DNA of 32,000 bases, taken from an uncultured Erysipelotrichaceae bacterium (GTDB lineage Bacteria > Bacillota_I > Bacilli_A > Erysipelotrichales > Erysipelotrichaceae). Made by a program: the position numbers and the translations under genes. Below are positions 5,683 through 22,791 of the stretch, piece by piece. How positions within the stretch are numbered: the first letter of the stretch is position 1; the number at the start of each line of letters is the position of its first letter. Location: the NCBI GenBank assembly GCA_942492995.1, contig OW818653.1, positions 1,140,001 to 1,172,000 of the forward strand. The letters run 5' to 3'. Under the pieces are notes generated by a model, which searched no databases, was not told the origin of the DNA, and saw nothing but the letters and a program-made list of their open reading frames with translations.

Positions 5683-6300
5683 ATGAAAAGCACACATTTG
5701 GTTGAGTTAAGAAAATATGAATTAGTCGATGATTCGAGTCAAGAAATCATTTTTGGATTGAACCAAGAATGGTACAAATCAAAGTGGCAAAAAATGGCTG
5801 GATGTGGTCCAACCGCAGCGAGTAGTCTAATCTATTATCAATTGTCAAACGATATTACGCTTAATAAAGACTCCGCAATCCAATTAATGGAAGTATTATG
5901 GGAATATGTAACACCTGGAATGGGTGGAGTATATAAACGGTCTATGTTTACAGATGGATTAAAGCGGTATTTTGATAAAAATGAGATACAAGCAAAGATT
6001 GAATCAATCGAAATTACAAAAAATAAAAAGACTCGTATGAGTCTTAAAGATACAATCGATTTTTTAGAAAATGGATTAAGTAATAACTCACCCATCGCAT
6101 TTCTAAATCTAGATAATGGCGATGAAGAGAAACTAGATGAATGGCATTGGGTTGTGATAAGTGGAATTGATATTCATGAGGATCATAATCAAGTATTTAT
6201 AAACATTATCGATGATGGTAAGCTATTTGCGATCGACCTTGATTTATGGTTAAGAACAACTAAAAAAGGTGGCGCATTTGTTTACTTTACTATGATTTAA
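5683..6300 (+). CDS. predicted cytoplasmic papain-fold cysteine peptidase (C39-like domain)
   Basis: Candidate catalytic residues appear in C39-like order: Q-x4-C (WQKMAGCGPTAAS), then His (DEWHWVVISG), then Asp (INIIDDG). There is no signal peptide and no fused transporter. Confidence 0.45.
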   Translation: MKSTHLVELRKYELVDDSSQEIIFGLNQEWYKSKWQKMAGCGPTAASSLIYYQLSNDITLNKDSAIQLMEVLWEYVTPGMGGVYKRSMFTDGLKRYFDKNEIQAKIESIEITKNKKTRMSLKDTIDFLENGLSNNSPIAFLNLDNGDEEKLDEWHWVVISGIDIHEDHNQVFINIIDDGKLFAIDLDLWLRTTKKGGAFVYFTMI

Positions 6301-7351
6301 TTTTCTTAAGTAATAAATCTGAATCAAAGCTATGCAATAAGGCTTCATCTTGAGTGATGAGGTCTTTTTTTAATAGATCCAACAACATAGAATCCATACT
6401 AATCATTCCTTCAGAACTTGAAGATGCGATTGTGTTTTTTAATTGGTGTGTTTTAGCTTCACGTATTTGATTACGAACCGCTAGACTGTTGGTCATTACT
6501 TCAAAGACCGGTGCTAATTCACCATTCTTTAAGTGAATAAGTTGTTGAGATATTACTGCTTCAAGAACCATCGATAATTGAAGACGAATTTGTTGTTGCT
6601 GGGATGCTGGAAATACATCCACAATTCGATCAACCGTGTTAGCTGCTCCAAGCGTATGCAATGTCGAAAAGACGAGATGTCCAGTTTCCGCTGCTGTTAT
6701 CGCTAATGAGATTGTTTCTAAGTCACGCATTTCACTAATAAACAATACATTCGGTGCTTGTCTTAGTGCTGATTTAAGCGCTGAAGAACTTGAATCACAA
6801 TCACTTCCAACTTCTCTTTGTGTGACGATACTCTTCTGATGACGGTGAAGATATTCGATTGGATCTTCGATTGTCACAATATGACCTGAACGATTCTTAT
6901 TAATTAAATCTAGGATGACTGCTAAGGTTGATGATTTACCCGCACCTGCTGGGCCACTAATGATAACCAATCCTTTAGTAAGTTCAGAGAAACGTGTTAT
7001 TTCAGTAGGAATACCCAAATCATTCGCAGTAGGAATATCAAACTGTACAAGACGAATAACTGCCGCAAGTGAATTACGTTGATGATATACATTTACTCTT
7101 AATCGTGCTAAATGAGCTAAGGAAAATGAAAAATCATCATCTCCTTTTTGGTCTAAACGTTCCATATTACGATTACCAGCAAGTCGATATAGTTCATCCA
7201 CTACCATATGACAATGATCAGGACCTAACACTTCATTGTCTATACGTGAAACATTATTTTTTACTTTAAATGCGATGGGTGAACCAGCTACGAAAAATAT
7301 ATCAGACGCATCCAGTTCCACAGCTTTTCTAGCAATCTCTTGAATATTCAT
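6290..7351 (-). CDS. pilT: PilT-type (retraction-type) type IV pilus ATPase
   Basis: It is colinear with P. aeruginosa PilT: MNIQEIARKAVELDASDIFF, Walker A GPAGAGKSST, IEDPIE, ALRQAPNVLFISEMRD, His box TGHLVFSTLHT, and AVRNQIREAKTHQL (the AIRNLIRE motif). I set the start at ATG 7351, 5 nt after a GGAGG at 7361-7357. The upstream stop is at 7353-7355. Confidence 0.9.
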   Translation of the reverse strand: MNIQEIARKAVELDASDIFFVAGSPIAFKVKNNVSRIDNEVLGPDHCHMVVDELYRLAGNRNMERLDQKGDDDFSFSLAHLARLRVNVYHQRNSLAAVIRLVQFDIPTANDLGIPTEITRFSELTKGLVIISGPAGAGKSSTLAVILDLINKNRSGHIVTIEDPIEYLHRHQKSIVTQREVGSDCDSSSSALKSALRQAPNVLFISEMRDLETISLAITAAETGHLVFSTLHTLGAANTVDRIVDVFPASQQQQIRLQLSMVLEAVISQQLIHLKNGELAPVFEVMTNSLAVRNQIREAKTHQLKNTIASSSSEGMISMDSMLLDLLKKDLITQDEALLHSFDSDLLLKKIKS

Positions 7352-7352
7352 A

Positions 7353-7778
7353 CTATCCTCCATATACGGGATCACCGTCTTGTGTATAATCTTGGTTATT
7401 TCCAGAAGTTAATTTCCATTCAATTACTTCTAATTCTATCTTCTCATTATTGATAACTTTCAATACAACATTAAGACTTAAATTCTGACTTACTTTAGAA
7501 ACATGAATTATTTGTTTCTCACGATCATATTCCCAATCTTTTATATCATCGAATCCATTAACTTTCTGATTTAAACTATTTTCAATGTTTATGATTAGTA
7601 TATCCATATCCCTTTGAATTGTATAACTCTCAGTTAATAGAGTATTTCCACGTTCAATTGAATGTCTAATGTTTAATGTATTTAGATAACTTAACGTAGA
7701 AAAACTAATGATTAATACCACGATTAATACAGTAAATAATGTAGGAACACCAAACAACGTAATACTGTGTTTTTTCAT
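7353..7778 (-). CDS. small bitopic protein (141 aa), pilin/ComGG-like topology without a prepilin motif
   Basis: I set the start at ATG 7778 (MKKHSITLFGVPTLFTVLIVVLIISF), which is preceded by an AAGGTGG Shine-Dalgarno sequence. It has a short basic N-terminus and a single N-terminal hydrophobic helix followed by a soluble domain. It lacks Gly(-1) and Glu(+5). Confidence 0.6.
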   Translation of the reverse strand: MKKHSITLFGVPTLFTVLIVVLIISFSTLSYLNTLNIRHSIERGNTLLTESYTIQRDMDILIINIENSLNQKVNGFDDIKDWEYDREKQIIHVSKVSQNLSLNVVLKVINNEKIELEVIEWKLTSGNNQDYTQDGDPVYGG

Positions 7779-7780
7779 AC

Positions 7781-8158
7781 TTATTCTACCACCTTTACAA
7801 CATCCCAAGATAATAGTTTTTCACTGTTTAGTGTGAATAAATTTAAAGTATACACATCATATATCCCATTACTCGTCATCTTAATGTGCAGTTGATAATA
7901 ATCAATAGATTCTACTTTATTACCATTTGAATCGAAATTAAGTGTCCAATCATTTGTGTATATTTCTTTCGAATTCTTACTCTGAATATCCTCGGAAATC
8001 ATTACCATCGTTTCTGACATTTTCATCATTGCTTCATTTGACTGATGTTGAGTCATAGAACGTACAAAAATCATATTAGTGACACTTAAACTCACAAAAA
8101 GAATAAGTATACATAACACCATTTCCATCATAAAGAGTCGTTGTGAGTTTTTTTTCAT
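7781..8158 (-). CDS. small bitopic protein (125 aa) with a degenerate prepilin-like N-terminus
   Basis: The N-terminus MKKNSQR-LFMMEMVLCILILFVSL has a Glu at the fifth position after the basic stretch, as in class III signal peptides, but Arg stands where Gly(-1) is expected. It has an ATGA overlap with the upstream gene. Confidence 0.6.
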   Translation of the reverse strand: MKKNSQRLFMMEMVLCILILFVSLSVTNMIFVRSMTQHQSNEAMMKMSETMVMISEDIQSKNSKEIYTNDWTLNFDSNGNKVESIDYYQLHIKMTSNGIYDVYTLNLFTLNSEKLLSWDVVKVVE

Positions 8159-8601
8159 TGTGCGTCTCTTTTACTTCTTAACGTATAGTTTAGTTCAGTC
8201 GTATCATCCTTATCGTTTAGATATATAACTTGAACTCTATCATTAGATAAATTAAAACTTAGATTATTTAGTTTAGCTATTCTTTGACCGGAAGTTTCTA
8301 ATTTATAATCAACTTCTGAAACTTGTTCAACTAAGAAACCATCTTCTTCATAGATTAATGTAAAATACCCATCATGGTTTATTAAAATATAATCTTCATT
8401 GATTATCAACTTATCACTCGTATCAGACTGATTAAATCGATGATTAAAGTACAATAAAATCGTTCTTTGGTTCATTGATATCTCTGATTCAGTCGTCATA
8501 GATTGATAAAAGTTAGCCCCTAAATAGATGGTAAAAACCATGATAAAAACAAACCCACTTAATACAATCCATTGTAAGAATTGATTAGATATTCGTTTCA
8601 T
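8155..8601 (-). CDS. small bitopic protein (148 aa), unknown (pseudopilin- or PilN/O-like topology)
   Basis: MKRISNQFLQWIVLSGFVFIMVFTIYL forms an N-terminal anchor followed by a soluble domain. It has ATGA overlaps with the neighbouring genes at both ends. Confidence 0.55.
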   Translation of the reverse strand: MKRISNQFLQWIVLSGFVFIMVFTIYLGANFYQSMTTESEISMNQRTILLYFNHRFNQSDTSDKLIINEDYILINHDGYFTLIYEEDGFLVEQVSEVDYKLETSGQRIAKLNNLSFNLSNDRVQVIYLNDKDDTTELNYTLRSKRDAQ

Positions 8602-8894
8602 TGGTTTAATCCTTTTCTAAATACAGTCACATCAGGTCTAATATTGGACGCAAAGCTCTTAAAACTTATGTAGTATAGTCTTTCATCTATGATTAATCCG
8701 TAATTATCAATTAGATAATCAATTTTAGCAGGATAGAATCCTTCTTGTGCATAACAAAGATTCAGAGATCGTTGAATCGCTGACTCTACTTGTTCTATTT
8801 GATATTGTGTATTCGTTTGTTGGATTAGATTCGCCAATGGAATACTTAATATCAATAGAGATAGTGTTACACCAATAAAGATTAACTTTTTCAT
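8598..8894 (-). CDS. small bitopic protein (98 aa), unknown
   Basis: MKKLIFIGVTLSLLILSIPL forms an N-terminal hydrophobic helix. Its ATG directly abuts the TAA stop of the GspF-like gene (TAAATG). Confidence 0.55.
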   Translation of the reverse strand: MKKLIFIGVTLSLLILSIPLANLIQQTNTQYQIEQVESAIQRSLNLCYAQEGFYPAKIDYLIDNYGLIIDERLYYISFKSFASNIRPDVTVFRKGLNQ

Positions 8895-9920
8895 TTAAAA
8901 CCCAAGTGTTTGCATCGCTTGTAATAATGGAACAAGCAATGATAGTAAAACAGACCCAACTCCTAATGCTAGAATAACTAAAATGATTGGTTCTATGCGA
9001 TTAAACGCTTTCTCTAAAACACGATCAGATTCAATCTGTGTTGTTTCACTAACTCTTTTCAATGTATTCTCTAAATTACCTGATTTATACGCTAAGCGTA
9101 TTGTATTCTGTGTAAAAGCTGGATAGATATCCGTCTTTAATATTAAGTCGATAATCGTTTCTTGATCACCTAATTGTACAGATTTTAATTTTCGATAAAG
9201 CTCTCTTTTTGGTAGATAATCAAATATTAAGTCGAGAGCAGAATGGTTATTAACGCCCGACTCTACCATTAATTCAACAAGATACGAGAAATAAGCTAAA
9301 TCAGTTTTATATAAACTTTTTGGTATTAGATTTAACACATGATCAATAACATCATTTGATTCTGGATGATTGTACTTATGAATTGTAATATAGATAGCCC
9401 AAAGTACAAAGATAACAATGAATATAATTCCGATGCTTGAGATGACATTAATACCATTCAATAAAATATTTATCCAAACTGGATACGAACCACCTAAGTT
9501 GATAAATATAGATTGGAAGATTGGTAGCACAACAAAGCTTAGTACATTTAATACAATAATCAATATCGTAAATAATACGAAAGGTAAATAAAGTAAATCC
9601 ATTAATTCTTTACGATAATTTGCTTTACGTTGATAAAATATCGCTAAATGCTTAAGAATTGATTCTTGTTTCCCTATCTCACTTGCAACATCCATGCTTG
9701 AAATTAATAGTTTATCGAACTGTTCTGTTCTTCTGATAGATTCTTCAAAACTATTACTTTCACGATAATATGAAAGAATCAGTTTATAATCGATTTCTGA
9801 GTGCTGTTCTGATAGTAAAATCAATCCATCCTCAAGTGGTAAGCCATTCTCAAAAATCATGGCACATTGCGTACAAAATACACTGTGAATATTATCATCA
9901 TACATTCTTAATTTTGCCAT
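8895..9920 (-). CDS. GspF/PilC/ComGB-like type II secretion system F-family platform protein
   Basis: The 341-aa protein has two cytoplasmic helical T2SSF-like halves (F..L..M.E.G..L..AL..) separated by TM segments, plus a C-terminal TM ending in ...LLVPLLQAMQTLGF. An AAAGGGG Shine-Dalgarno sequence lies upstream. Confidence 0.75.
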   Translation of the reverse strand: MAKLRMYDDNIHSVFCTQCAMIFENGLPLEDGLILLSEQHSEIDYKLILSYYRESNSFEESIRRTEQFDKLLISSMDVASEIGKQESILKHLAIFYQRKANYRKELMDLLYLPFVLFTILIIVLNVLSFVVLPIFQSIFINLGGSYPVWINILLNGINVISSIGIIFIVIFVLWAIYITIHKYNHPESNDVIDHVLNLIPKSLYKTDLAYFSYLVELMVESGVNNHSALDLIFDYLPKRELYRKLKSVQLGDQETIIDLILKTDIYPAFTQNTIRLAYKSGNLENTLKRVSETTQIESDRVLEKAFNRIEPIILVILALGVGSVLLSLLVPLLQAMQTLGF

Positions 9921-9932
9921 AGTGTTACCCCT

Positions 9933-10862
9933 TTAATAATAATCCTGTTCTTGATATTCACCATTATATGAACCCATAGAATCAAATGTCGGGTCTACTC
10001 TCTTCCAAACCTCTGCTTCAAAATAAATACTGGGATTAATCCAACCAATATCTTTAATATATACATCAACCCACGCATGATATCCTTGTTCAACATAGCC
10101 TGTCACAACTCGTGTTGGAATGTGTTGGACTCTTAACATCGCAGTCATAAGTGAAGCGTAATCAAAACAAATTCCTTTCTCTATTAAATATGTTTCATCA
10201 ATTATTGGTAATATAAACTTCGTCTGAGCGACCTCAGCTTTGTCATAATCATACTCGATATTATTAATAATATACTGATAAACTTCATATACTCTTTCTA
10301 TTTCACTATCCGCATCAACGGTTAATTCAAATGATTTCATAATCGCTTTTGTCTCTTTATTGTAATCCACAATTTGATTGGGATAGAGATACGATGACGT
10401 TTCATCAATTAATGTGACATCTATTTTAGTTGATGCACTTACAACATAAGAACTTCCTTCTTTATTCTTTAACAATCGTATCGAATACACTCCATCACCC
10501 ATTTGCATCGGTATAATTACATACTGATTTGGGACAAGAGAATACGTATAAACAGTATCATTCATAGAAACTTGTGCTTTAAGATCTACATTGCTATCTG
10601 GCGCAAGTATACTAATATAACCAAATTCCGCATTCGAATAATCGATTTCATACCCATTAGATTCAAATACTAATTTACCAGGTTGTGTTGGCCATAGAAT
10701 CTCTTCAAAGGTATATTTCTTAGAACTCTCACCAACTGATGGATACTTTTCAAATACATTTAGATTTTGCGCTTGGCATCCAGATAAAAACAATAGAAGC
10801 ACAATTAATACGCACCTTATCTTAATTGTAAAAGTATGTTTGAGATTGTTTGAGATTGTCAT
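9933..10862 (-). CDS. transglutaminase-like (papain-fold Cys-His-Asp) lipoprotein
   Basis: It has a lipobox, LLFLSG-C (Cys29). The C-terminal core carries Cys (KGICFDYASLMTAMLR), His (GYHAWVDVY) and Asp (KRVDPT) in transglutaminase-core order. No Shine-Dalgarno sequence precedes the ATG. Confidence 0.75.
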   Translation of the reverse strand: MTISNNLKHTFTIKIRCVLIVLLLFLSGCQAQNLNVFEKYPSVGESSKKYTFEEILWPTQPGKLVFESNGYEIDYSNAEFGYISILAPDSNVDLKAQVSMNDTVYTYSLVPNQYVIIPMQMGDGVYSIRLLKNKEGSSYVVSASTKIDVTLIDETSSYLYPNQIVDYNKETKAIMKSFELTVDADSEIERVYEVYQYIINNIEYDYDKAEVAQTKFILPIIDETYLIEKGICFDYASLMTAMLRVQHIPTRVVTGYVEQGYHAWVDVYIKDIGWINPSIYFEAEVWKRVDPTFDSMGSYNGEYQEQDYY

Positions 10863-10878
10863 TTTATTACTTTATTTC

Positions 10879-10887
10879 ATTATAGCA
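10879..10887 (-). promoter_or_regulatory. candidate extended -10 promoter (TGCTATAAT) for the transglutaminase-to-pilT cluster
   Basis: On the minus strand, TGCTATAATGA lies immediately after the terminator of the giant gene and 16 nt before ATG 10862. An identical TGCTATAATGA follows the terminator at 15956-15992. Confidence 0.35.
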
Positions 10888-10889
10888 TA

Positions 10890-10920
10890 ACAATAAAAAA
10901 AGAAGCCCGGAGGCTTCTTC
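10890..10920 (-). terminator. intrinsic terminator directly after the giant adhesin gene
   Basis: On the minus strand, GAAGAAGCC-tccg-GGCTTCTTT forms a GC-rich 9-bp stem followed by TTTTTTATT. It starts right after the TAA stop. Confidence 0.8.
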
Positions 10921-13900
10921 TTATAATCTAATTAATGTTTCGAATGAATCATCGATACCTTCAGGTATTGTTGCTGAATGAATAACTTTACCATTTAATT
11001 GGAAGTTAACAGTAACGCCACCACAATGTTTCGCTAAACGTTTGAAGAATTCGATTTCGATTGTTTGAACTTCAACTAAGTCTTTATCACTTAATTCCAC
11101 AACCATTGTCTTTTCATCTGGTTTAGCTAAACGTCTACGAACTACTTTCTGATTATTTGCTTTATCTGTTAAGATGTATTTCATATTAGGTCTTAAGAAC
11201 GCTAGTAACCATAATAGTAATCCAGCAAGTAGAGCTAGTAACCACCATAACCAGTCGTTATTCACGGCTGCTAGAGGTGTTTCAGGTTCTACAATAATAA
11301 TTTCTTCTGTTACATCTATTGTGATTTCTCCAATATTTGAATCATCTGTTCCATCATTTGCGATGAAAGTGAAACTATCTGTACCTTCGAATCCATCATT
11401 TGGAGTATATGTAAATGTTCCATCAGGATTGAATACGATTGTGCCATTTGTAGGATCAGTCACTAAACTAAATGTTAATGCGTCTCCATCTGGATCTGTA
11501 CCAGTTGCAGCACCATCGACAGGTTCTTCAAATGGAGTAGATAATGTATCATCTACAACAACTGGAGCACCATTAGGAGCTGGTGGAGGAGGAAGTGTTG
11601 TTACAGTAATTGTTACTGTAGCATTCGAAGTGTGAACACCGTCGAATACTTCAAATAAGAAACTATCACTGGTAGTAGCACCACCATTATGCGTATAACT
11701 AAATGTACCATCTACGTTTACAACTACACTACCGTTTGCTGTACCTGATAATAAACTAAAGCTTAATGGAGCTCCTTCAGGATCACTACCAGTTAATGTT
11801 CCACCCACAGTTCCACCTGTTAATACAGTTAGAGCTTGAGCAAATGCGACTGGAGGAAGATTGACTACTGGAGCCGCCAATACAGTTACAGTAACTGTTG
11901 CGGTAGAAGTTAGTTGACCATCTGTAACACTGAATACGAATGTATCGCTAAGTGTAGCAGAACCGTTATGTGTATACGTATATTCGCCTGTTGGGCTAAC
12001 AGTTGCTGTACCGTTAGTTGCAGGAGTTAATAAACTAAATACTAATGTATCTGCAGGAACATCCAAATCACTAGCAGTAACTAAACCATTACTTGAACCA
12101 GCATTCGGAACGATGAAGGCTAATGGATTTGCAACAGGAGGATCATTTACAGGTGTAACATCTATTACAACTGTAACGACATTCGAGTCTAGTAATCCGT
12201 CAGATACAAGGTAATCAAAGGAATCTAAACCAACATAGTTTTCATTTGGTGTGTAGGTAAACGAACCATCCACATTGAATAATAATGAACCAAATAACGT
12301 ACTTGTTTGAATACTTGGAGTTAATGAATCACCATCAACATCAGAATCATTTATCAAGACACCAGGAGCAGCGATAACTAATGCTGTATCTTCAGGTGTA
12401 TCATAATTGTCACCTACAGCAACTGGAGCATCATTAATTGGGTTAACTGTAATTGTTACAGTAGCGTAAGCTCTTAACTTACCATCACTAACGCCAAACA
12501 TGAAGCTATCTGGACCATGATAATCAGCATCTGGTGTATATGTACGACTTGCGCCAGTACCACTTAATGTTCCATGTAATGGAGCTTCAGTAATACCATA
12601 AATCAACGAATCGCCATCAACATCACTAGCTACAAAGTTAATTAATATTGGAGTATCTTCATCTGTAATAACTTCATCATCTTCAGCTACTGGACGATCA
12701 TTTAACGGAGTAACATCGATTGTGATTGTAGCAGATGCACGATAGAAGCCATCACTTAATGCGAATGTAAAGCTATCAGGACCAGTATAATTCAAGTCCG
12801 GAGTATATGTACGATTTGCACCAGTTCCAGTTAATACACCGTGTGCAGGACCTGTTAAGATACCAAACACTAATGTACTACCTTCAGTATCACTACCTGT
12901 TAAAGTAATAGGAAGTGGTGTTTCTTCTGGAGTTGTCAAATCTTGAGGATCAGCGATAGGACGATCATTAACAGCAGTAACAGTAATTGTTACAACTGCA
13001 GTATCAGTTTTTTCGCCATCACTCACTTCAAATGTAAAGCTATCAGGACCAAAGTAATTTGCGTCTGGAGTATATGTACGGTTTTCACCAGTACCACTTA
13101 ATACACCATGTAATGGACCTGTTTCAATATCGAATGTTAATGTTGTGCCTTCTGGATCACTACCCGTTAATGTAATTGGTAATGGAATATCTTCAGGCGT
13201 ATTTAGAGTTTGAGGATCTGCATCAGGAGCGTCATTGAAATCTAACACTGTAATTGAAACTGTTGCAGGAGCACTAAATGTTACACCACCATCATCACTG
13301 ACTCTGAATGTAAAGCTATCTGAACTTGTTTCACTTCCATCATGTACGTATTCAAATACGCCTAATCCATTTAAATCAATTGTTCCATTTGCTGGAGAAC
13401 CAACTAATTCGAATGTTAATGCATCGCCATCATCATCTTGACCTGTTACTGATCCATTGTATGTTCCACCTTCAAGTACATCGAAAGCTTTTGGATTAGC
13501 GACAGGATTATCTTCTTCTGAAGTAATATTTAATGTGACTAATGCGGTAGCAGTTCCACCATTTCCATCGGTTATACGATAGACAAATGAATCTGTACCA
13601 TGGAAATTAGCATATGGAGTATATGTGAACGAGCCGTCTGGATTTAAAACTAAGACTCCATTAACTGGTTCTGATCCAATTACTAATGAAACACTTAAGC
13701 CATTATTTTCAACATCTGAATCATTAGATTTAACACCAGGTGCTGCAACAACTAATTGAATATCTTCAGTTGTAGTATATTCATCTGGATTTGCGATTGG
13801 TAAATCGTTTATTGGATTTACTGTTACAAATACTGTAGCAATACTTCCACCATTAATTGTATATGTAAACTGATCTGGTCCAAAGTAATCAGCAGTTGGA

Positions 13901-15423
13901 GTGTACTTAATTGTACCATCAAGATTTAAAACTGCTGTTCCATGAGCTGGAGAACCAACTAATGTAACCATTAAAGGACCGCTATCGATATCTGTATCAT
14001 TCGCTATTACATTAATGTCAATTTCAACATCTTCATCAGTAGTAGCAACATCATTTACTGCAACTGGAGCATCATCGATTGGATTAACAGTTACGGTAAC
14101 TGTAGCAACACTTCCACCATTCAATGTATATGTGAATGTGTCAACTCCAACGAAGTTTGCGTTTGGTGTGTACTTGATTGTACCATTAGGGTTTTCAACT
14201 GCTGTTCCATTAGATGGAGAAGTAACACTTGTAACTTCTTTTAAACCTGCATCGATATCTGTATCATTTAATAATACGTCGATATCAATAGCAACTTCTT
14301 CATCAGTTGAAGTAACATCATCTACAGCAACTGGTAAATCATCTAAATTTGCTACATTTATTGTAATTGTTGCATATGCAGAATTTGCATATCCATCATT
14401 TACTCTAAATGTGAATGAATCTGAACCAAAGAAATTTAAATTAGGTGTATACGTCAAATTAGGTAACGTTCCACTTAGCACACCATTTGCTGGTGTACCA
14501 ACATCGACAAAGCTAATAACTTGCGAAACATCCGCATCAGATCCAGTTAAAGTAATTCCAATTGGAACTTCTTCATTTGTATTTAATGTTTGAGGATCCG
14601 CAACTGGAATAGCATTTATTGTATTAACTAAAACAGCTGCACTTGACGTTAATATTGTTCCACCTGATGTTGTACCTGTAGCTGTATTATTTACAGTGAC
14701 AGGATCCATAGATGACTGATCAATATTATGAACATAAGTGTAAATTGCTGGAAGTGTAAATACACGTGGACTTGATAGATCCATTGGATCAGTTACTGTC
14801 AAAGTACCATCTGCATTTATAACATCTGGATTCTTAACATTTATTGCTGGAGTTAAAATACTTAATCCAGTATTTGTAAGATCTGTTTCACCAAATATTT
14901 GAATTGTAATCTTGAATGGTGAAATTGTTTCTAAAACTGCTTCATTGATTGTAAACGATGTTGTATAGGTTTCAGTAATTGTTTGATCCGCAACATCAGT
15001 AAAAGTATCAATAACAGCTTCCGAATAGATTGGACTTCCACTTGGATGAGCAATTAGTGATCTAACACTAAAGTCAGCAGGTGTTGTTCCAGTTAATTCA
15101 TACGTAACTGTGTACGTCAAACTAAATGTAATGTCTGTAGTTTGAGATACATCGACCGTATAAGTTACATTCTCATTTCCATCGACTGCTAAATTAAGTA
15201 CTGGTTTATCAACTGTTTTGATTATACCCCAGTATGTGTTAGCAATAACACTACCCGTAACATCTGGTTTGTTTACACCAACTGCTAATGATGTAGGTGT
15301 TAATACTGTTGGTAAGACACCTCCATCGCCTGGTTTAGCATAAACGTTTAAAAATGGCGTTCGATCGACAAGTAATAGAGCTATTATCAATATTCTCGTC
15401 AATCGGTTGAGTAAGTTCTTCAT
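10921..15423 (-). CDS. giant (1500 aa) surface repeat protein/adhesin: signal peptide, N-terminal beta-rich region, 12 cadherin-like (tandem-95/VCBS-type) repeats, C-terminal TM anchor, cytoplasmic tail
   Basis: A GGGAGG Shine-Dalgarno sequence at 15436-15431 precedes the start. The Sec signal is MKNLLNRLTRILIIALLLV...VYA/KPG. The repeats carry the motifs [AL]PVA.D, D.D.D/DGD and G.F.YTP...F.G.DSF.Y...D. The TM helix is WLWWLLALLAGLLLWLLAFL. There is no LPXTG. Confidence 0.9.
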   Translation of the reverse strand: MKNLLNRLTRILIIALLLVDRTPFLNVYAKPGDGGVLPTVLTPTSLAVGVNKPDVTGSVIANTYWGIIKTVDKPVLNLAVDGNENVTYTVDVSQTTDITFSLTYTVTYELTGTTPADFSVRSLIAHPSGSPIYSEAVIDTFTDVADQTITETYTTSFTINEAVLETISPFKITIQIFGETDLTNTGLSILTPAINVKNPDVINADGTLTVTDPMDLSSPRVFTLPAIYTYVHNIDQSSMDPVTVNNTATGTTSGGTILTSSAAVLVNTINAIPVADPQTLNTNEEVPIGITLTGSDADVSQVISFVDVGTPANGVLSGTLPNLTYTPNLNFFGSDSFTFRVNDGYANSAYATITINVANLDDLPVAVDDVTSTDEEVAIDIDVLLNDTDIDAGLKEVTSVTSPSNGTAVENPNGTIKYTPNANFVGVDTFTYTLNGGSVATVTVTVNPIDDAPVAVNDVATTDEDVEIDINVIANDTDIDSGPLMVTLVGSPAHGTAVLNLDGTIKYTPTADYFGPDQFTYTINGGSIATVFVTVNPINDLPIANPDEYTTTEDIQLVVAAPGVKSNDSDVENNGLSVSLVIGSEPVNGVLVLNPDGSFTYTPYANFHGTDSFVYRITDGNGGTATALVTLNITSEEDNPVANPKAFDVLEGGTYNGSVTGQDDDGDALTFELVGSPANGTIDLNGLGVFEYVHDGSETSSDSFTFRVSDDGGVTFSAPATVSITVLDFNDAPDADPQTLNTPEDIPLPITLTGSDPEGTTLTFDIETGPLHGVLSGTGENRTYTPDANYFGPDSFTFEVSDGEKTDTAVVTITVTAVNDRPIADPQDLTTPEETPLPITLTGSDTEGSTLVFGILTGPAHGVLTGTGANRTYTPDLNYTGPDSFTFALSDGFYRASATITIDVTPLNDRPVAEDDEVITDEDTPILINFVASDVDGDSLIYGITEAPLHGTLSGTGASRTYTPDADYHGPDSFMFGVSDGKLRAYATVTITVNPINDAPVAVGDNYDTPEDTALVIAAPGVLINDSDVDGDSLTPSIQTSTLFGSLLFNVDGSFTYTPNENYVGLDSFDYLVSDGLLDSNVVTVVIDVTPVNDPPVANPLAFIVPNAGSSNGLVTASDLDVPADTLVFSLLTPATNGTATVSPTGEYTYTHNGSATLSDTFVFSVTDGQLTSTATVTVTVLAAPVVNLPPVAFAQALTVLTGGTVGGTLTGSDPEGAPLSFSLLSGTANGSVVVNVDGTFSYTHNGGATTSDSFLFEVFDGVHTSNATVTITVTTLPPPPAPNGAPVVVDDTLSTPFEEPVDGAATGTDPDGDALTFSLVTDPTNGTIVFNPDGTFTYTPNDGFEGTDSFTFIANDGTDDSNIGEITIDVTEEIIIVEPETPLAAVNNDWLWWLLALLAGLLLWLLAFLRPNMKYILTDKANNQKVVRRRLAKPDEKTMVVELSDKDLVEVQTIEIEFFKRLAKHCGGVTVNFQLNGKVIHSATIPEGIDDSFETLIRL
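11308..14610 (-). repeat. 12 tandem coding repeats of 87-98 codons (~260-295 bp period) inside the giant gene
   Basis: In the translation, repeat starts fall at aa 272, 363, 452, 541, 639, 732, 821, 910, 999, 1095, 1189 and 1286, and the array ends near aa 1372. Recurrent DNA strings such as GGACCA(A/G)..TAAT..GC.TCTGGAGTATATGTACG are visible in several units. Confidence 0.85.
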
Positions 15424-15443
15424 ATAATTTCCTCCCTTTTGTT

Positions 15444-15547
15444 AAAAAACCGGTCTAATGCATAGTGCAATTGACCGGTCATGATATCTCGAGGATACTT
15501 TAGACGTCGAACTTTGTGTCCCAAGCTTTCACCTGGTTTACCTTTTT
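15444..15547 (-). promoter_or_regulatory. c-di-GMP-I (GEMM-I)-like riboswitch, copy 1 (gene-proximal), with intrinsic terminator
   Basis: The minus strand reads AGGTAAAC-CAGGT-GAAA-GCTTG-GGACACAAAG-TTCGACGTCTAAAG-...-CATGACCGGTCAATTGCA-cta-TGCATTAGACCGG-TTTTTT. The core is colinear with the Vc2 aptamer core. The terminator U-tract ends 8 nt before the Shine-Dalgarno sequence. Confidence 0.75.
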
Positions 15548-15590
15548 ACTAAGATTAAATTTTTATAAGTCTACGGATGTCCAAGATACG

Positions 15591-15695
15591 AAAAACCGGA
15601 CAACCGCATTAGTTTGCAGTTGACCGGTCATGATATCTTTTGATATTTTAGACGTCGAACTTTGTGCCCTAAACTTTCGTTTAGTTTACCCATAA
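15591..15695 (-). promoter_or_regulatory. c-di-GMP-I (GEMM-I)-like riboswitch, copy 2 (distal), with intrinsic terminator
   Basis: The minus strand reads GGGTAAAC-TAAAC-GAAA-GTTTA-GGGCACAAAG-TTCGACGTCTAAAA-...-CATGACCGGTCAACTGCA-aactaa-TGCGGTTGTCCGG-TTTTT. The unpaired core is the same as in copy 1, and the stems differ from copy 1 by compensatory changes. Confidence 0.75.
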
Positions 15696-15778
15696 AAACA
15701 TATGTAATAATAAATAATGATAAAACAGATTTAATTAATAATTATTATCAATATTATTACCCGTTTTATTGTAAACAT

Positions 15779-16016: not shown

Positions 16017-17366
16017 TCAATAAATTCCAAGAACTGCAAGAATAATAGCTGGAACAGTAGCGATAATAGGCATAATCAATGAAACTACCATAATATCGAT
16101 ATATGAATCTTTATGAGTCATACCTGTATTATTTAATAGAGTTAGAACAGCACCATTATGTGGTAATGTATCTAGACCTCCAGACGATAGTGAAGCGATA
16201 CGGTGGAATGCTTGAGCTGAGATACCAGAAGTTTTTGAAAGTTCCAAATACTTAGCACCTAAAGCTGCTAATGCAATACCCATACCACCAGAAGCGGATC
16301 CTGTAGCACCAGCTAATAAGTTAACTGCTACAGATAGTGAAATTAGTGGATTACCAGGGATTGATAATAACATATTTGTTAATTCAGCAAATCCTGGAAC
16401 AGCGCGTACAACAGTACCGAAACCAACAGCAGCAGATGTATTTAGAACTGCACCAATAGCACCTTGTGAACCAACTGTTAAGCTTCTTAATAATAGATCT
16501 CTCTTCTTGAAATTGAATAGTGAAACTAGAGCAATTCCTGAAAGTAAAGCATAAACGATGAACTCATTAGTTGAACGACCAGCGGCGATTTGTTCTTCAG
16601 TAAATTTGATGAACATTGGTAATGTGTTAAGAACAGTAATAACAACAACTAGTGGGATAAGAGCAACAAATACATTTGGTAGAACTTCATTTTCTTTGTT
16701 CTTAGCGGCATGAGCTGCATCTGGTTCTGTATAGAATAAACCATTTGTTTCATGTTTTTTACGTTTCCATTCTAAGTAGTATAGACCACCAAAGAATAGA
16801 ACAGCAGTAGCGGTTAGACCCATGATTGGAGCTGCAGTAGCAGTTGTTCCAAAGTAAGGCATAGGAATTAAGTTTTGGATTTGTGGAGTACCTGGAACAG
16901 CTGTCATAGTGAATGTGAATGCACCTAAAGCGATAGCTCCAGGAATAAGTTTACGAGTAATGTTTGCTTCTTTGAAGATTGCTAATGCTAATGGATAGAT
17001 TGCAAATACAACAACGAATAATGAAACACCACCTAAAGTAAGAACTGCACATGAGATAACGATAGAAGCGATAGCGAATTTAGCACCTAACCATTTTGTT
17101 AATACGATAGCGATAGACTTAGCAGCGCCAGTCGTTTCCATCATATTTCCGAAAATAGCAGATAACATAAATGCTGGGAACCAAGTCTTAACGAAGCCAA
17201 CAAGACCTGTCATATATGGACCCATATATGTAGCGATGATATCTAAGCCACCTGTTAAAGCGACGACTGCTGCACATAGTGGAGCAACCCAAACGATTGA
17301 ATAACCCTTTAAAGCTAAATACATTAATAGGCCAAGACCTAAGAATATACCGAATAAACTTAACAT
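16017..17366 (-). CDS. GntP-family permease (predicted 3-hydroxybutyrate/short-chain hydroxy-acid:H+ symporter)
   Basis: The 449-aa polytopic protein has C-terminal blocks GSASGGMGIAL and LPHNGAVLTLL, which parallel the GntP motifs (GSATVA..., SHVNDPGFW). It is the last gene of the bdh/ato operon. The substrate is inferred from context only. Confidence 0.65.
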   Translation of the reverse strand: MLSLFGIFLGLGLLMYLALKGYSIVWVAPLCAAVVALTGGLDIIATYMGPYMTGLVGFVKTWFPAFMLSAIFGNMMETTGAAKSIAIVLTKWLGAKFAIASIVISCAVLTLGGVSLFVVVFAIYPLALAIFKEANITRKLIPGAIALGAFTFTMTAVPGTPQIQNLIPMPYFGTTATAAPIMGLTATAVLFFGGLYYLEWKRKKHETNGLFYTEPDAAHAAKNKENEVLPNVFVALIPLVVVITVLNTLPMFIKFTEEQIAAGRSTNEFIVYALLSGIALVSLFNFKKRDLLLRSLTVGSQGAIGAVLNTSAAVGFGTVVRAVPGFAELTNMLLSIPGNPLISLSVAVNLLAGATGSASGGMGIALAALGAKYLELSKTSGISAQAFHRIASLSSGGLDTLPHNGAVLTLLNNTGMTHKDSYIDIMVVSLIMPIIATVPAIILAVLGIY

Positions 17367-17395
17367 TTCTTTCTCCTTTTAAGTTGGAATACAGA

Positions 17396-18157
17396 CTAAG
17401 CTGCTGTCCAACCTCCATCGATAGTCATTGTTGAGCCAGTGATCATAGATGCTTCATCAGCACATAAGAACTTAACTACATTAGCAACTTCGGAAGGTTG
17501 TAATAATTTCTTAACAGCTGCTTTTTGAAGCATGATCTTAGAAACTACTTCTTCTTCAGAAATTCCATGAGTTGCTGCTTGAGCAGCGATTTGTTTGTCT
17601 ACTAGTGGAGTTTGCACATAAGATGGGCAAATAGAGTTAACAGTGATACCGAATGGTCCACCTTCTAGAGCGGTAGTCTTTGTTAAACCAGCTAAGCCGT
17701 GTTTAGCAGAAACATAAGCGGATTTAAATTCTGAAGCAACTAATCCATGGATAGAGTTTAAGTTAATAACACGTCCCCATTTTTGTGCTTTCATATAAGG
17801 CCATGAATAACGAGTAAGCAAGAATGGAGCAGTTAACATTAAGTTAATCATGAAGTCCCATTTGTCTTCAGGGAAGTCTTCAATTGGTGAAACTGTTTGA
17901 ATACCAGCCACGTTAACAAGAATATCAACTTTTTCAAATAGACGAACTGCAACATCGACTACATTTTTGCAATCTTCGCGTTTGCTTAGATCTGCAACAA
18001 CATATTCAGAACCTAATCTCTCACAATGTGATTTTAGTTGAGCTTCATTAATGTCAACCATTACCACCTTTGCTTGTTCAGCCGCAAACATTTCTGCTAT
18101 AGCTAAACCAATACCACTGGCGGCACCTGTAACGATGCACACTTTGTCTTTTAACAT
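17396..18157 (-). CDS. bdhA: 3-hydroxybutyrate dehydrogenase (short-chain dehydrogenase/reductase)
   Basis: It has the TGAASGIGLAIA Rossmann motif, the catalytic YVSAKHG (YxxxK), and a C-terminal block ICPSYVQTPLVDKQIAAQA...G that closely parallels known BdhA enzymes. The ato/thiolase context supports the call. Confidence 0.8.
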   Translation of the reverse strand: MLKDKVCIVTGAASGIGLAIAEMFAAEQAKVVMVDINEAQLKSHCERLGSEYVVADLSKREDCKNVVDVAVRLFEKVDILVNVAGIQTVSPIEDFPEDKWDFMINLMLTAPFLLTRYSWPYMKAQKWGRVINLNSIHGLVASEFKSAYVSAKHGLAGLTKTTALEGGPFGITVNSICPSYVQTPLVDKQIAAQAATHGISEEEVVSKIMLQKAAVKKLLQPSEVANVVKFLCADEASMITGSTMTIDGGWTAA

Positions 18158-18214
18158 TATTGTCCTCCTTATGATGTACTTTGTTAAAAGTATATGATTA
18201 ATAGATTGTATCTA

Positions 18215-18874
18215 TTAAACTTCGATGTTCTTTAAGTCTTCTGCGATAATCAACTTAGGTTCAGTTGCTGCTTGGACTTCTTCTACTGTAAACTCAGGAT
18301 TAATTTCTTTTAATACTAATCCCTTATCTGTAACTTCTATAACACCCATTTCAGTCACAATTAGATTTACTTCATTTGCGGCTGTTAATGGTAAGTTACA
18401 TTCATTAAGAATCTTTAAACTACCTTTAGCGGTATGTTCCATTGCGACGATTACTTTTCGTGCTCCGGATATTAAATCCATTGCACCACCCATACCTGGA
18501 ACCATTTTCCCTGGGATCATATAGTTCGCAATGTTACCCTTTTCATCAACTTGAAGTGCCCCTAGAACAGTTAAGTCTACATGGCCTCCTCTGATGATTC
18601 CAAACGATGTAGCACTATCGAAGAAGATACCACCCTTTTTAATTGTGACAGGCTTACCACCAGCATTAGTTATATAAGGATCAATATTCTCTTCACTTGG
18701 TGTAGGACCTAAACCAACGAAACCATTTTCAGATTGGAACATAACTGCTTTGTCATGTGGAACATAGTTCGCAACGAGTGTTGGTAGTCCAATGCCTAAA
18801 TTAACAACATCTCCATCATGTAGTTCTTTCGCAACACGTTGAGCAATATATTCTTGTACAAATTGCTTATCCAT
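18215..18874 (-). CDS. atoA: acetate/3-oxoacid CoA-transferase, subunit B
   Basis: It is colinear with E. coli AtoA: IA.RVA.EL.DGDVVNLGIGLPT.VANY, the catalytic SENG motif (FQSENGFVGLGP), and PGKMVPGMGGAMDL. Confidence 0.9.
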   Translation of the reverse strand: MDKQFVQEYIAQRVAKELHDGDVVNLGIGLPTLVANYVPHDKAVMFQSENGFVGLGPTPSEENIDPYITNAGGKPVTIKKGGIFFDSATSFGIIRGGHVDLTVLGALQVDEKGNIANYMIPGKMVPGMGGAMDLISGARKVIVAMEHTAKGSLKILNECNLPLTAANEVNLIVTEMGVIEVTDKGLVLKEINPEFTVEEVQAATEPKLIIAEDLKNIEV

Positions 18875-18875
18875 T

Positions 18876-19526
18876 TTAGCGCGTTCCTTTCACGATGTAA
18901 TTCACAAACACACCTGGTGTTTCTGCAATGTCTGGATTTAATGCTTCTTCAGAGTATTCAAGCACTTCAACAATTGTTTTAGTAGCTGCGCCAGCCATTA
19001 CTGAGTTAAAGTTTTGAGCTGCACCGTGATAAACTAAATTACCATATTTATCGGCTTTTTGAGCGAAGATTAATGCGAAATCTGCTTTTAATGGTTTTTC
19101 TAATAAATATTTAGTTCCATCAATCTCAATTACATCTTTTCCTTCTTGAACTTTTGTACCAACTCCAGTTCTTGTAAGGAATCCACCAAGTCCATAACAT
19201 GCACAACGAATTTGTTCAGCAAGTGTACCTTGTGGGGTTAGAATAACTTCAGTCTCGCCTTCTAACATTTGTCTTCCAGTTTCTTTGTTTGTTCCAATGT
19301 GTGAGGCAATTACTTTACTGAATTGTTTATTCACAACAAGTTTTCCAACTCCACTATCGACAAATCCACTATCATTACAGATCAGAGTAAGGTTCTTAGT
19401 GCCTTTTGCGACTAATGCGTCAATTAGGTTAAGAGGTGCTCCAACACTAAGAAACCCTCCGATCATCAAAACATCACCATCTTTTATTTGCGAAACTGCT
19501 TCTTCAATACTAATTAGTTTATTCAT
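18876..19526 (-). CDS. atoD: acetate/3-oxoacid CoA-transferase, subunit A
   Basis: I set the start at ATG 19526 (MNKLISIEEAVSQIKDGDVLMIGGF), 8 nt after the thiolase stop. It is colinear with AtoD/ScoA. The longer ORF-track start would overlap the thiolase gene. Confidence 0.9.
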   Translation of the reverse strand: MNKLISIEEAVSQIKDGDVLMIGGFLSVGAPLNLIDALVAKGTKNLTLICNDSGFVDSGVGKLVVNKQFSKVIASHIGTNKETGRQMLEGETEVILTPQGTLAEQIRCACYGLGGFLTRTGVGTKVQEGKDVIEIDGTKYLLEKPLKADFALIFAQKADKYGNLVYHGAAQNFNSVMAGAATKTIVEVLEYSEEALNPDIAETPGVFVNYIVKGTR

Positions 19527-19534
19527 AGAGTTTC

Positions 19535-20713: not shown

Positions 20714-20804
20714 TTTATTCTCCTTTTTCACAAAATTATATTTACTAAAGCGCTTACACTATTATTTAACTCTATCGTCAATTGTTTGTGAAATACTAGA
20801 ATTT

Positions 20805-20830
20805 TATAACTTGTATAAGTAAAAGTTATA
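20805..20830. promoter_or_regulatory. candidate LysR-type binding site (inverted repeat TATAACTT-N10-AAGTTATA)
   Basis: A perfect 8-bp inverted repeat containing T-N11-A-type symmetry sits in the divergent intergenic region between the LysR gene and the thiolase operon. Confidence 0.4.
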
Positions 20831-20861
20831 GGTTATCATAAATTCAAGGACATTAACTACT

Positions 20862-21807: not shown

Positions 21808-22791
21808 ATGGATTACTCACACTTTACTAAAGAAACGCTTATACTACGAATCAAACAGCTTGAAAGATTAAACTTTGAGTTATTAAAGGAAAATGATGAT
21901 GACTTATCGTATGCTTGGACAGGTAGTCTTGGTAAATGGTATCTAGATTTTTCATCTGGATACGCTGTATTTAATGCACAAAAAGTACTCGCATTAGGTT
22001 ACACTATGGACGAAATTCCTCATCCTACACCTTACACTTTTTTCACTTCCTTAATTCATCCAGATGATTATGATAAAACAATGAAAAGCATGTTAGATAA
22101 TATGCACAATATATCCCCAGTTTACGAAATTGAATATCGCATTCGCGGAAAAGATGGAACCTATAAGTGGTTTTATGATCGAGGTCGTGTTACTCAACGT
22201 GATGAAGAAGGACATGCGACATTTGCGGCAGGAATCGTATTTGATATTACTAATAAAAAGGAAGATGAATTACGATTGTTGAAAGAAAGCCAGGACTTCA
22301 AACGAAGTTCATTGACCGATCCTTTAACAAATATTATGAATCGACGCGCTATTTTAGATGAGTTATCCAAACGTATGAATAAACATATTTATAATTTTGA
22401 ACATCTATCCATCTTAATGTTGGATATCGATGATTTTAAATTTATTAACGATCAATATGGTCATATAAAAGGTGATGAAGTACTCGTAAAAGTCACCCAA
22501 ATAATTATTGAAGTAATTCGTGGAATTGATACCGTTGGGCGCTATGGTGGTGAAGAGTTCTTAGTTATATTTCCGAACACTGACTTACAAAACGCACATA
22601 ATGCGAGTGAACGTATTAGGATGAAAATTGAGAATACAGAGTTTGCTGGAATCGGTAAAATCACTGTTAGTGGTGGTTATACTGAGTATATAAATGAGTC
22701 GATTGAAGAATTAATTGATATCGCCGACCAAAACTTATATCAAGCAAAAAGAACTGGTAAAAATAAAGTAATAGGTAATTTTCTTAAGTGA
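21808..22791 (+). CDS. PAS-GGDEF diguanylate cyclase (intact GGEEF active site and RxxD I-site)
   Basis: It has a coiled N-terminus and a PAS/PAC domain (YRIRGKDGTYKWFYDRG....G...AAGIVFDIT). The GGDEF domain reads DPLTNIMNRR...DIDDFKFINDQYGH..GD. The I-site RGID lies 5 residues before GGEEF. There are no TM segments. Confidence 0.9.
   Translation: MDYSHFTKETLILRIKQLERLNFELLKENDDDLSYAWTGSLGKWYLDFSSGYAVFNAQKVLALGYTMDEIPHPTPYTFFTSLIHPDDYDKTMKSMLDNMHNISPVYEIEYRIRGKDGTYKWFYDRGRVTQRDEEGHATFAAGIVFDITNKKEDELRLLKESQDFKRSSLTDPLTNIMNRRAILDELSKRMNKHIYNFEHLSILMLDIDDFKFINDQYGHIKGDEVLVKVTQIIIEVIRGIDTVGRYGGEEFLVIFPNTDLQNAHNASERIRMKIENTEFAGIGKITVSGGYTEYINESIEELIDIADQNLYQAKRTGKNKVIGNFLK

Follow-up and report, generated by a model that had tools for sequence, protein, structure and literature searches.

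Adhesins controlled by a riboswitch for cyclic dimeric guanosine monophosphate (c-di-GMP) have been described in Bacillus thuringiensis (PMC4933901, PMC7423583), and in Clostridioides (Clostridium) difficile virulence factor genes are regulated through multiple c-di-GMP riboswitches (PMC6200980). The subject of this study is a locus of this kind in an uncultured Erysipelotrichaceae bacterium (assembly GCA_942492995.1, contig OW818653.1, positions 1,140,001-1,172,000); this stretch of 32,000 nt is referred to below as the window, and coordinates are those of the window. Its minus strand encodes a 1500-aa repeat adhesin with two c-di-GMP-I riboswitches in the 5' untranslated region (UTR). The same arrangement, a c-di-GMP riboswitch in the 5' UTR of a monoderm surface adhesin, is seen for Cap/CbpA of B. 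thuringiensis (Bc2 RNA) and in the C. difficile regulon, and here as there relief of a terminator is predicted to switch the gene on at high c-di-GMP, which fits a sessile lifestyle (PMC4933901, PMC7423583, PMC6200980). By analogy, the window adhesin can be regarded as a new member of a known scheme, the known part being a fibrillar tandem-95 adhesin under c-di-GMP riboswitch control. What is new is a conserved family of anchors composed of a transmembrane (TM) helix and a cytoplasmic domain, its strict association with c-di-GMP-I riboswitches, and its frequent adjacency to a gene unit encoding transglutaminase-like, PilC-like and PilT-like proteins.

In B. thuringiensis and C. difficile the adhesins are of the LPXTG type: sortase attaches them to the cell wall, and they carry collagen-binding or Cna-type domains. 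Unlike them, the window adhesin has tandem-95 repeats, no LPXTG motif, and an anchor formed by a TM helix and a cytoplasmic domain. It resembles the tandem-95 (Big_9) and periscope proteins in its variable head and variable repeat number, and the 12 repeats of its stalk exceed the Pfam and NCBIfam cut-offs by a wide margin. The known anchors of tandem-95 and fibrillar proteins are LPXTG motifs, SLH domains, signals of the type I, V and IX secretion systems (T1SS, T5SS, T9SS) and others, whereas the module of the window adhesin, comprised of an ETPL linker, the TM helix and an 87-aa domain, matches no Pfam or NCBIfam model. Proteins of the Listeria ActA type are Sec-exported Firmicutes surface proteins that also use a single C-terminal TM segment instead of sortase; they end a few basic residues past the helix, while the family described here adds a conserved cytoplasmic domain of 87 aa that is predicted to be folded.

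A further parallel is provided by LapA of Pseudomonas fluorescens, a T1SS substrate kept in the diderm outer membrane by an N-terminal plug; its system includes LapG, a transglutaminase-like cysteine protease of the BTLCP family, and the protein LapD, which senses c-di-GMP. A protein with a transglutaminase-like fold is encoded beside the window adhesin as well. Moreover, both LapA and the window adhesin are giant repeat adhesins whose presence at the surface depends, or in our case would depend, on c-di-GMP, and the idea of information passing across the membrane is common to both (PMC3032545). The differences from the Lap system are control at the RNA level, the C-terminal TM anchor, the monoderm host and the family of the transglutaminase-like protein, which is not that of LapG.

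The adhesin gene and the parts of its product are as follows (ORF, open reading frame; HMM, hidden Markov model; pN/pS, ratio of non-synonymous to synonymous polymorphism; AF2, AlphaFold2).

10921..15423, minus strand: adhesin ORF, a single frame of 1500 codons (1500 aa) plus stop codon
15431-15436, minus strand: ribosome-binding site GGGAGG, 7 nt 5' of the adhesin ATG
15337..15423, minus strand: signal-peptide-like N-terminus, aa 1-29, ending VYA/KPG (by inspection, with a hydropathy peak at aa 11-29)
14617..15336, minus strand: N-terminal head, aa 30-269, presumed ligand-binding tip (no Pfam family at E<=1)
11308..14616, minus strand: stalk of 12 tandem-95 / Big_9 / bacterial-cadherin-like repeats, aa 270-1372 (Pfam, NCBIfam, self-built HMM)
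11254..11307, minus strand: acidic juxtamembrane linker with ETPLxx(L/V/P), aa 1373-1390 (motif kept in both subfamilies, see below)
11194..11253, minus strand: Trp/Leu-rich TM helix WLWWLLALLAGLLLWLLAFL, aa 1391-1410 (Kyte-Doolittle maximum 2.47; helix in the AF2 model)
10924..11193, minus strand: cytoplasmic tail, aa 1411-1500, with the conserved 87-aa domain starting at M1414 (HMMER, pN/pS, AF2)

The helix WLWWLLALLAGLLLWLLAFL is the sole strong hydrophobic peak apart from the N-terminus, and it is followed by a conserved stop-transfer motif (F/I)(L/I)RPN. The charge of its flanks is -5 over 20 residues on the outer side and +6 over 30 residues on the inner side; the ectodomain is extremely acidic (186 D+E vs 25 K+R, net charge -161), while the 90-aa tail is charge-balanced (15 acidic vs 13 basic residues). 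Because of these flank charges, and of the acidic ectodomain as opposed to the balanced tail, the adhesin is predicted to be a type I membrane protein with the N-terminus outside and the C-terminus inside. In a regular-expression search of the adhesin, LPxT[GASN], NPxTG or related motifs were not found; a Pfam scan gave no SLH, LysM, choline-binding or GW domain at E<=0.01, and neither Gram_pos_anchor nor other sorting-signal HMMs of Pfam and NCBIfam matched, also when the linker and the TM helix were scanned with NCBIfam. Unlike the short basic tail of sortase substrates, 90 residues follow the helix. These observations support the single C-terminal TM helix as the only detectable anchor, with the tail on the positive-inside, that is cytoplasmic, side.

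Much of this agrees with an earlier annotation of the same DNA (the original prediction), which had proposed a 1500-aa protein at 10921-15423, tethered to the membrane by a TM helix at aa 1391-1410 (nt 11194-11253) and devoid of LPXTG, SLH, LysM, choline-binding and GW modules. The single open frame on the minus strand bears out the protein, the helix coordinates match exactly and the scans for other anchors are all negative. Tethering by this helix, with the tail on the positive-inside side, agrees with the sequence features, whereas the further claim that the tail serves as an inside handle for an ATPase is unproven. The proposed Sec signal peptide with cleavage at VYA/KPG is compatible, by inspection, with the n-, h- and c-regions of the leader. 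The statement that such an anchor is unusual for monoderm adhesins was too strong: TM regions are found in ~20% of the fibrillar-adhesin-like proteins of a survey that lack a known anchor (PMC8286594). A giant protein of Anaerorhabdus, described below, is also TM-anchored.

The C-terminal module recurs as a family. An exhaustive HMMER search with the tail profile over 1.84 billion representatives yielded 20 matches, 19 of which are convincing clusters, including P0003, the window's own adhesin in the representative library (below, database proteins have P numbers and loci have L numbers); the remaining match, P0021, is a spurious repeat protein and was discounted. The index queried for the exact 1500-aa sequence has no record of it. 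In every full-length protein (850-2000 aa), as well as in fragments reaching the upstream repeats, the module ends at the last residue, and the three shortest matches (63-108 aa) are fragments of the module alone. Such short fragments apart, the 19 clusters show the combination of linker, TM helix and tail in one place only, the very C-terminal end of large tandem-95 proteins. All relatives of assigned source are Erysipelotrichaceae or Bacillota (metagenome-assembled genomes). The aligned module consists of an acidic/hydrophobic strand, (E/D)TP(L/Q)xx(L/V/P), the Trp-rich helix, (F/I)(L/I)RPN(M/I/L)(K/R)Y and RR(R/H), followed by (D/E)L(N/D)DK, YK(R/Q)L(A/V)K, (I/V)P and L. Two subfamilies can be distinguished, A with 'KRLAKH' and B with 'KQLVKREQG', and the linker motif occurs in them as ETPLAA, ETPLVAL, DTPLSPL and ETPQAPL. 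The sequence N-terminal of the module, by contrast, varies freely, both in the heads and in the number of repeats. A 170-aa subfamily-B remnant at L011:1258-2136 (also in L012 and L013), comprised of the last repeat, the TM helix and a truncated tail and adjoining a transposase gene (rve), looks like a decayed copy.

Pairwise comparisons of the tail give pN/pS of 0.08-0.28, which indicates purifying selection. The AF2 model built from a 9-sequence alignment has a predicted local distance difference test (pLDDT) score of 81 and shows the TM helix followed by a beta-sandwich of 7 strands with one short helix; an earlier model from 3 sequences was poor (pLDDT 62) and its Foldseek matches were meaningless. 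Searches of NCBIfam at E<=0.1 with the tail were empty, and those of Pfam and of PDB sequences at E<=10 gave chance-level matches only, so that at the sequence level the domain matches no known family and is previously undescribed. Conservation, selection and the predicted fold support the TM helix and the tail being a conserved, selected and foldable module and not a chance hydrophobic stretch. The single Cys of the protein, to which the original prediction had drawn attention (KHCGG), is real and lies in the tail (residue 1467), but the emphasis on it was misplaced, as it is not conserved: relatives have KHLGN, KNMGN or KREQGQ at this site.

The tail is an integral part of the adhesin. When the last 122 aa were used as the query of a word-index search, only two 87-aa entries (P0001, P0002) were retrieved, starting at the Met equivalent to M1414. 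In the DNA, the called frame of L001 is shifted by a run of N, although the sequence itself runs on uninterrupted from the TM helix into the tail; in L003 (121-150) and L004 (1-30) the codon of Trp1405, TGG, half-way along the helix, is replaced by an in-frame TAG. No stop interrupts the frame between the repeats and the last codon of the tail in the window, L005, L007, L008, L009, L010, L015, L016, L017 and L020, and reading of the DNA before M1414 revealed no Shine-Dalgarno sequence. This reading (the N-gap frameshift and the in-frame TAG) essentially refutes a separate tail gene. L003 and L004 come from two separate metagenome samples; their tails differ at two synonymous sites and share the TAG, and the tail of the TAG allele is still conserved (pN/pS 0.087 vs L009). 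The allele may represent a natural variant with a released adhesin, a pseudogene of recent origin or a case of read-through, and its existence shows that natural strains can lose the anchor or else read it differently.

The ectodomain and the leader support a Sec-exported, acidic repeat protein of the fibrillar-adhesin kind. The leader, a predicted signal peptide, has an n-region with K2, R7 and R10, an h-region ILIIALLLV and a c-region ending in VYA. Across subfamily A this leader, MKNLLNRLTR...LLLVDRTPF(L/F)NVYA, is unusually conserved, even in L009 with its wholly different head. Twelve tandem repeats had been proposed for the stalk, and the same number was recovered by Pfam Big_9 (PF17963: 12 stretches, E=1.4e-191, 622 bits vs a cut-off of 23.6, with overlapping Cadherin_4 and Cadherin_5 matches), by NCBIfam tandem-95 (NF012211: 12 stretches, 594 bits vs a cut-off of 90) and by the self-built repeat HMM, which places 12 units of 87-96 aa apiece at aa 270-1372. 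The repeats are Ig-like and have acidic DxDxD/DGD loops and DSF motifs; the BapA/Bap/LapF model (NF045619) stayed below its cut-off in the NCBIfam scan of the adhesin (60 bits vs 180). Among the module-bearing proteins the number of repeats ranges from 5 to 18. The orthologue in the closest genome (L005:5167-9942) is 92% identical and has exactly one extra repeat of 89 aa, inserted at a repeat boundary (window aa 1092). By analogy with fibrillar-adhesin-like and periscope proteins, for which variable heads and repeat numbers have been described (PMC8286594, PMC9704523), such variation is typical of stalk-length variation of the periscope type.

As for the heads, the one in L009 occupies the same position as the window head, is 33% identical to it and contains no named domain, while in subfamily B a VWA domain and a GBS104-like Ig domain are found in P0017 and a VWA domain in L010. 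The N-terminal region of the window adhesin had been described as DUF11-like, a label that is unsupported: scanned alone, its 242 aa match neither DUF11 nor any other Pfam family at E<=1.

The regulatory part of the locus precedes the adhesin; a cyclase gene lying outside the locus is included in the list.

15612..15700, minus strand: aptamer 1 of c-di-GMP-I riboswitches in the adhesin 5' UTR (Rfam RF01051, 63.2 bits vs a gathering threshold of 35, full length 1-87)
15589..15629, minus strand: intrinsic terminator of riboswitch 1 (hairpin of -22.2 kcal/mol, z=-6.0, then a U-run)
15463..15552, minus strand: c-di-GMP-I riboswitch aptamer 2 in the adhesin 5' UTR (Rfam RF01051, 61.5 bits vs 35, full length)
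15442..15480, minus strand: intrinsic terminator of riboswitch 2 (hairpin of -16.7 kcal/mol, z=-4.9, then U6; the same overlapping design)
21808..22791, plus strand: PAS-GGDEF diguanylate cyclase (Pfam GGDEF 7e-43, PAS_3)

The 5' arm of each terminator hairpin (GACCGGUCAA...) is the 3' strand of the aptamer P2 stem, and in the minimum-energy fold calculated without ligand the terminator is formed and P2 is given up, the two pairings being mutually exclusive. Both riboswitches are predicted from these folds to be transcriptional ON switches, and two of them in series would be expected to sharpen the response. The tandem arrangement is common, 347 c-di-GMP-I doublets having been catalogued (PMC9481103). 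In eight loci the contig includes the 5' region of an intact adhesin gene, and riboswitches are found there in every one of them, two in subfamily A (window, L005, L008, L009, L015, L016) and one in subfamily B (L010, L017). The hint of c-di-GMP in the original prediction was right, with the effect to be sought at the RNA level, in the tandem c-di-GMP-I riboswitches upstream. The PAS-GGDEF gene is 6.4 kb from the riboswitch-controlled locus, and its product is a possible source of the c-di-GMP signal.

The reading that we consider probable, with reasonably good confidence, is that of a fibrillar adhesin which is induced by c-di-GMP, exported by Sec and held in the membrane as a type I protein by a single helix that is backed by a conserved cytoplasmic beta-sandwich. 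A monoderm host is indicated by the relatives, which are Erysipelotrichaceae or Bacillota where assigned, and by an LtaS-like gene in the window. At low c-di-GMP each terminator would form and transcription would stop. Bound c-di-GMP would lock the P2 stem, which holds the 5' arm of the terminator, and therefore both switches would have to read through, presumably giving a steep ON response. The protein would be exported by Sec and its leader cut after VYA, and the stalk, strongly acidic and probably stiffened by Ca2+, would carry the head through and beyond the wall; if each repeat measures ~4 nm, its length would be roughly 45-50 nm. The protein would remain tethered in the N-out/C-in orientation, with the cytoplasmic beta-sandwich sitting against the inner leaflet, stabilising the anchor against pulling force and offering a docking surface for a cytoplasmic partner. 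Stabilisation of the anchor under load together with provision of a docking surface is the most likely role of the tail.

Several points weigh against this reading. Cleavage of the signal peptide, topology and surface display are predicted from the sequence only, and thermodynamic folds are the sole basis for regarding the riboswitches as ON switches. The window head lacks a recognisable adhesive domain (0 Pfam families at E<=1 for the 242 N-terminal aa). The best Foldseek matches of the tail are beta-sandwiches that do not reach significance (3rj2, E=0.04; the PLAT/C2-like domain of C. perfringens alpha-toxin, E=0.09), and any function of the tail is pure inference. Finally, because the L003/L004 lineage has an in-frame TAG inside the TM helix, an intact anchor is not indispensable in every strain.

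The alternatives involve the genes 3' of the adhesin, which form a unit of seven on the same strand (6290-10862).

10897..10922, minus strand: intrinsic terminator directly 3' of the adhesin stop (11-bp stem, T-run, -15.2 kcal/mol, z=-4.5)
10879..10887, minus strand: extended -10 promoter element TGCTATAAT 5' of the downstream unit (consensus match only)
9933..10862, minus strand: transglutaminase-like lipoprotein, first gene of the unit (Pfam Transglut_core 1.5e-21; lipobox LSGC with Cys29; Cys232/His262/Asp290 triad)
8895..9920, minus strand: PilC/GspF-like platform (Pfam T2SSF x2, E=1.5e-21; GspF, PilC and ComGB models below cut-offs)
7353..8894, minus strand: four small proteins of 98/148/125/151 aa with N-terminal TM segments, atypical and at most pilin-like
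6290..7375, minus strand: PilT/PilU-family ATPase (TIGR01420, 395 bits vs a cut-off of 319)

The unit resembles the Com pseudopilus and the type IV pili of Streptococcus sanguinis in having a PilT-family ATPase, a PilC/GspF-like platform and four small proteins of ComG size. It differs from type IV filament systems in that a transglutaminase-like lipoprotein comes first, that a canonical class III prepilin signal (G-1, E+5) is missing from all four small proteins, that no Pfam match to a prepilin peptidase was found among the window ORFs of >=80 aa, and that a PilB-type assembly ATPase is absent from the seven genes. Of the small proteins, the second matches DUF4860, the third has a conserved Glu in the N-terminal helix and weak ComGC/ComGF matches, and the fourth has a conserved LFG/VPTLFTV motif (break after LFG). 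Literature searches for DUF4860 and for the combination of PilT and transglutaminase gave no paper on the unit.

The order transglutaminase, PilC-like, four small proteins, PilT-like follows the adhesin in every subfamily-A locus examined, and the unit is kept beside it even in L016 (44% tail identity, different downstream flanks) and L020. Subfamily-B adhesins are followed by unrelated genes (L010 and L017, and also L014 and L018, where only the 3' gene ends are available). In L022 the unit has no adjoining giant protein; in Anaerorhabdus furcosa (L021) it follows a YDG/MBG protein of 3129+ aa with a plain TM anchor at its C-terminus, and in L023 it precedes a protein of 3165+ aa whose C-terminus is off the contig. 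Since the unit does not adjoin the subfamily-B adhesins and has no giant neighbour in L022, the transglutaminase-like gene belongs to the PilC/PilT unit, and the adhesin is its frequent but dispensable neighbour. The terminator hairpin after the adhesin recurs in L002, L003 and L016, and the -10 element is TGCTATAAT in the window, L002 and L003 and TGGTATAAT in the distant L016. As judged from these signals, the adhesin and the seven genes are separate transcription units and the latter are self-standing. The original prediction had seen in the tail an inside handle on the stalk, suggestive in view of the neighbouring ATPase and platform genes; against such a link, a terminator and an own promoter separate the genes, the same tail occurs away from the unit, and the unit occurs without an adjoining giant protein.

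Of the alternatives, the one that survives best, although we consider it unlikely, is that the module is a processing signal: the adhesin would be cut or transpeptidated at ETPLxxL, for example by the transglutaminase-like (papain-fold) lipoprotein, so that the stalk would be freed or linked to the wall and a stub of TM helix and tail left behind, as in the case of LapG and LapA. Both subfamilies retain the ETPL motif immediately outside the membrane, the neighbouring lipoprotein has its Cys232/His262/Asp290 triad intact, and its gene is kept beside the subfamily-A adhesins, even the distant ones of L016 and L020; moreover, cleavage of a surface protein is known to control c-di-GMP-dependent adhesion in Pseudomonas fluorescens (PMC3032545). 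However, subfamily B retains the motif and the tail with no adjoining transglutaminase-like gene, this gene goes with the PilC/PilT unit and not with the adhesin (L022), a folded and selected domain of 87 aa exceeds the needs of a sorting signal, and sorting-signal HMMs do not match.

It is rather doubtful, too, that the tail docks on the PilT-family ATPase or the PilC-like platform and that this machine pulls, positions or extrudes the adhesin. The constant gene order in the subfamily-A loci examined, L016 and L020 included, and the presence of the unit beside other giant proteins in L021 (TM-anchored) and L023 are consistent with such docking, but the transcription units are separate (a terminator, then a conserved promoter element), the same tail occurs away from the unit in L010, L017 and the partial genes of L014 and L018, the unit stands without a neighbouring giant in L022, and the tail has no sequence or fold similarity to known partners of type IV filament ATPases. 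Equally doubtful is the wider proposal that the 87-aa domain is a coupling device linking the c-di-GMP-induced adhesin to the PilT/PilC-like/transglutaminase machine or to another cytoplasmic partner. If it were true, the cell could pull, reposition, cluster or shed a wall-spanning adhesin from inside, in an integrin-like inside-out or a motor-driven manner, and this in a monoderm. Functional coupling to the seven-gene unit is possible, and the evidence does not require it.

A role of the tail as a c-di-GMP receptor, PilZ-like in function and adding post-translational control to that of the riboswitch, is very improbable. It would fit the conserved RR(R/H) cluster, located in a lower-confidence segment before the beta-rich domain, and the membership of the gene in a c-di-GMP regulon; on the other hand, none of 14 tails matches PilZ (PF07238) in Pfam at E<=10, RxxxR and (D/N)xSxxG are not conserved in the family, and Foldseek returned no PilZ structure. 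On these HMMs and motifs, PilZ identity of the tail was rejected. Hardly worth retaining is the view that the long ORF arose by a recent fusion or is a fusion artefact, the tail being a separate protein of 87 aa, for the only word-index matches in its favour, the short proteins starting at the M1414 equivalent, are both explained by the N-run frameshift (L001) or the TAG (L003, L004), the frame is continuous in >10 independent assemblies, and M1414 has no Shine-Dalgarno sequence before it.

For roughly half of the fibrillar adhesins predicted, no anchor is recognised (PMC8286594). The locus defines a conserved alternative anchor, composed of an ETPL linker, a Trp-rich TM helix and a cytoplasmic domain with a predicted fold, which has so far been seen only in Erysipelotrichaceae/Bacillota assemblies. 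The module could become a family model and so improve the annotation of environmental and gut-associated bacteria, and its consistent pairing with riboswitches makes a simple, testable regulon. The adjacency to the seven-gene unit gives a handle on a type IV filament-like machine that lacks canonical pilins. If the tail signals or bears force, this would be a rare bacterial adhesin with a functional intracellular domain.

Several minor observations concern the seven-gene unit and its surroundings. The unit is widespread in Erysipelotrichaceae-like genomes (L016, L020, L021, L022, L023), often near giant surface proteins and GGDEF genes; the latter are found near it in L020 and L021. Directly 5' of the transglutaminase gene of L021 there is a gene for a 169-aa protein (L021:9409-9918) with a signal peptide, an acidic EDEQTPEA segment, a TM helix and a tail of ~100 aa, that is, with the same architecture and in the same place as the C-terminal module of the adhesin in the window. 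As a stalk-less homologue it was rejected, since hhalign gave a probability of 0.2% and no similarity. Convergent with the PilT-like gene is a 205-aa ORF (window 5683-6300, plus strand) that weakly matches Peptidase_C39_2 (E=0.002); L005-L009 and L015 have an ORF of equal size in the same place and orientation, which L016 lacks.

Upstream of the adhesin, the region 16017-21788 contains ORFs that are thiolase-like, CoA-transferase-subunit-like (two), short-chain-dehydrogenase-like and GntP-like, the last with a Pfam permease match below the cut-off, as well as a divergent LysR-like ORF. With names read from the translations, this is likely a cluster for the utilisation of ketone bodies or acetoacetate, and putative genes of the same kind also flank the adhesin in L005 and L015. 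Finally, the window includes a heliorhodopsin gene (25055-25834, minus strand; Pfam PF18761, E=1.5e-93), here in an Erysipelotrichaceae genome.

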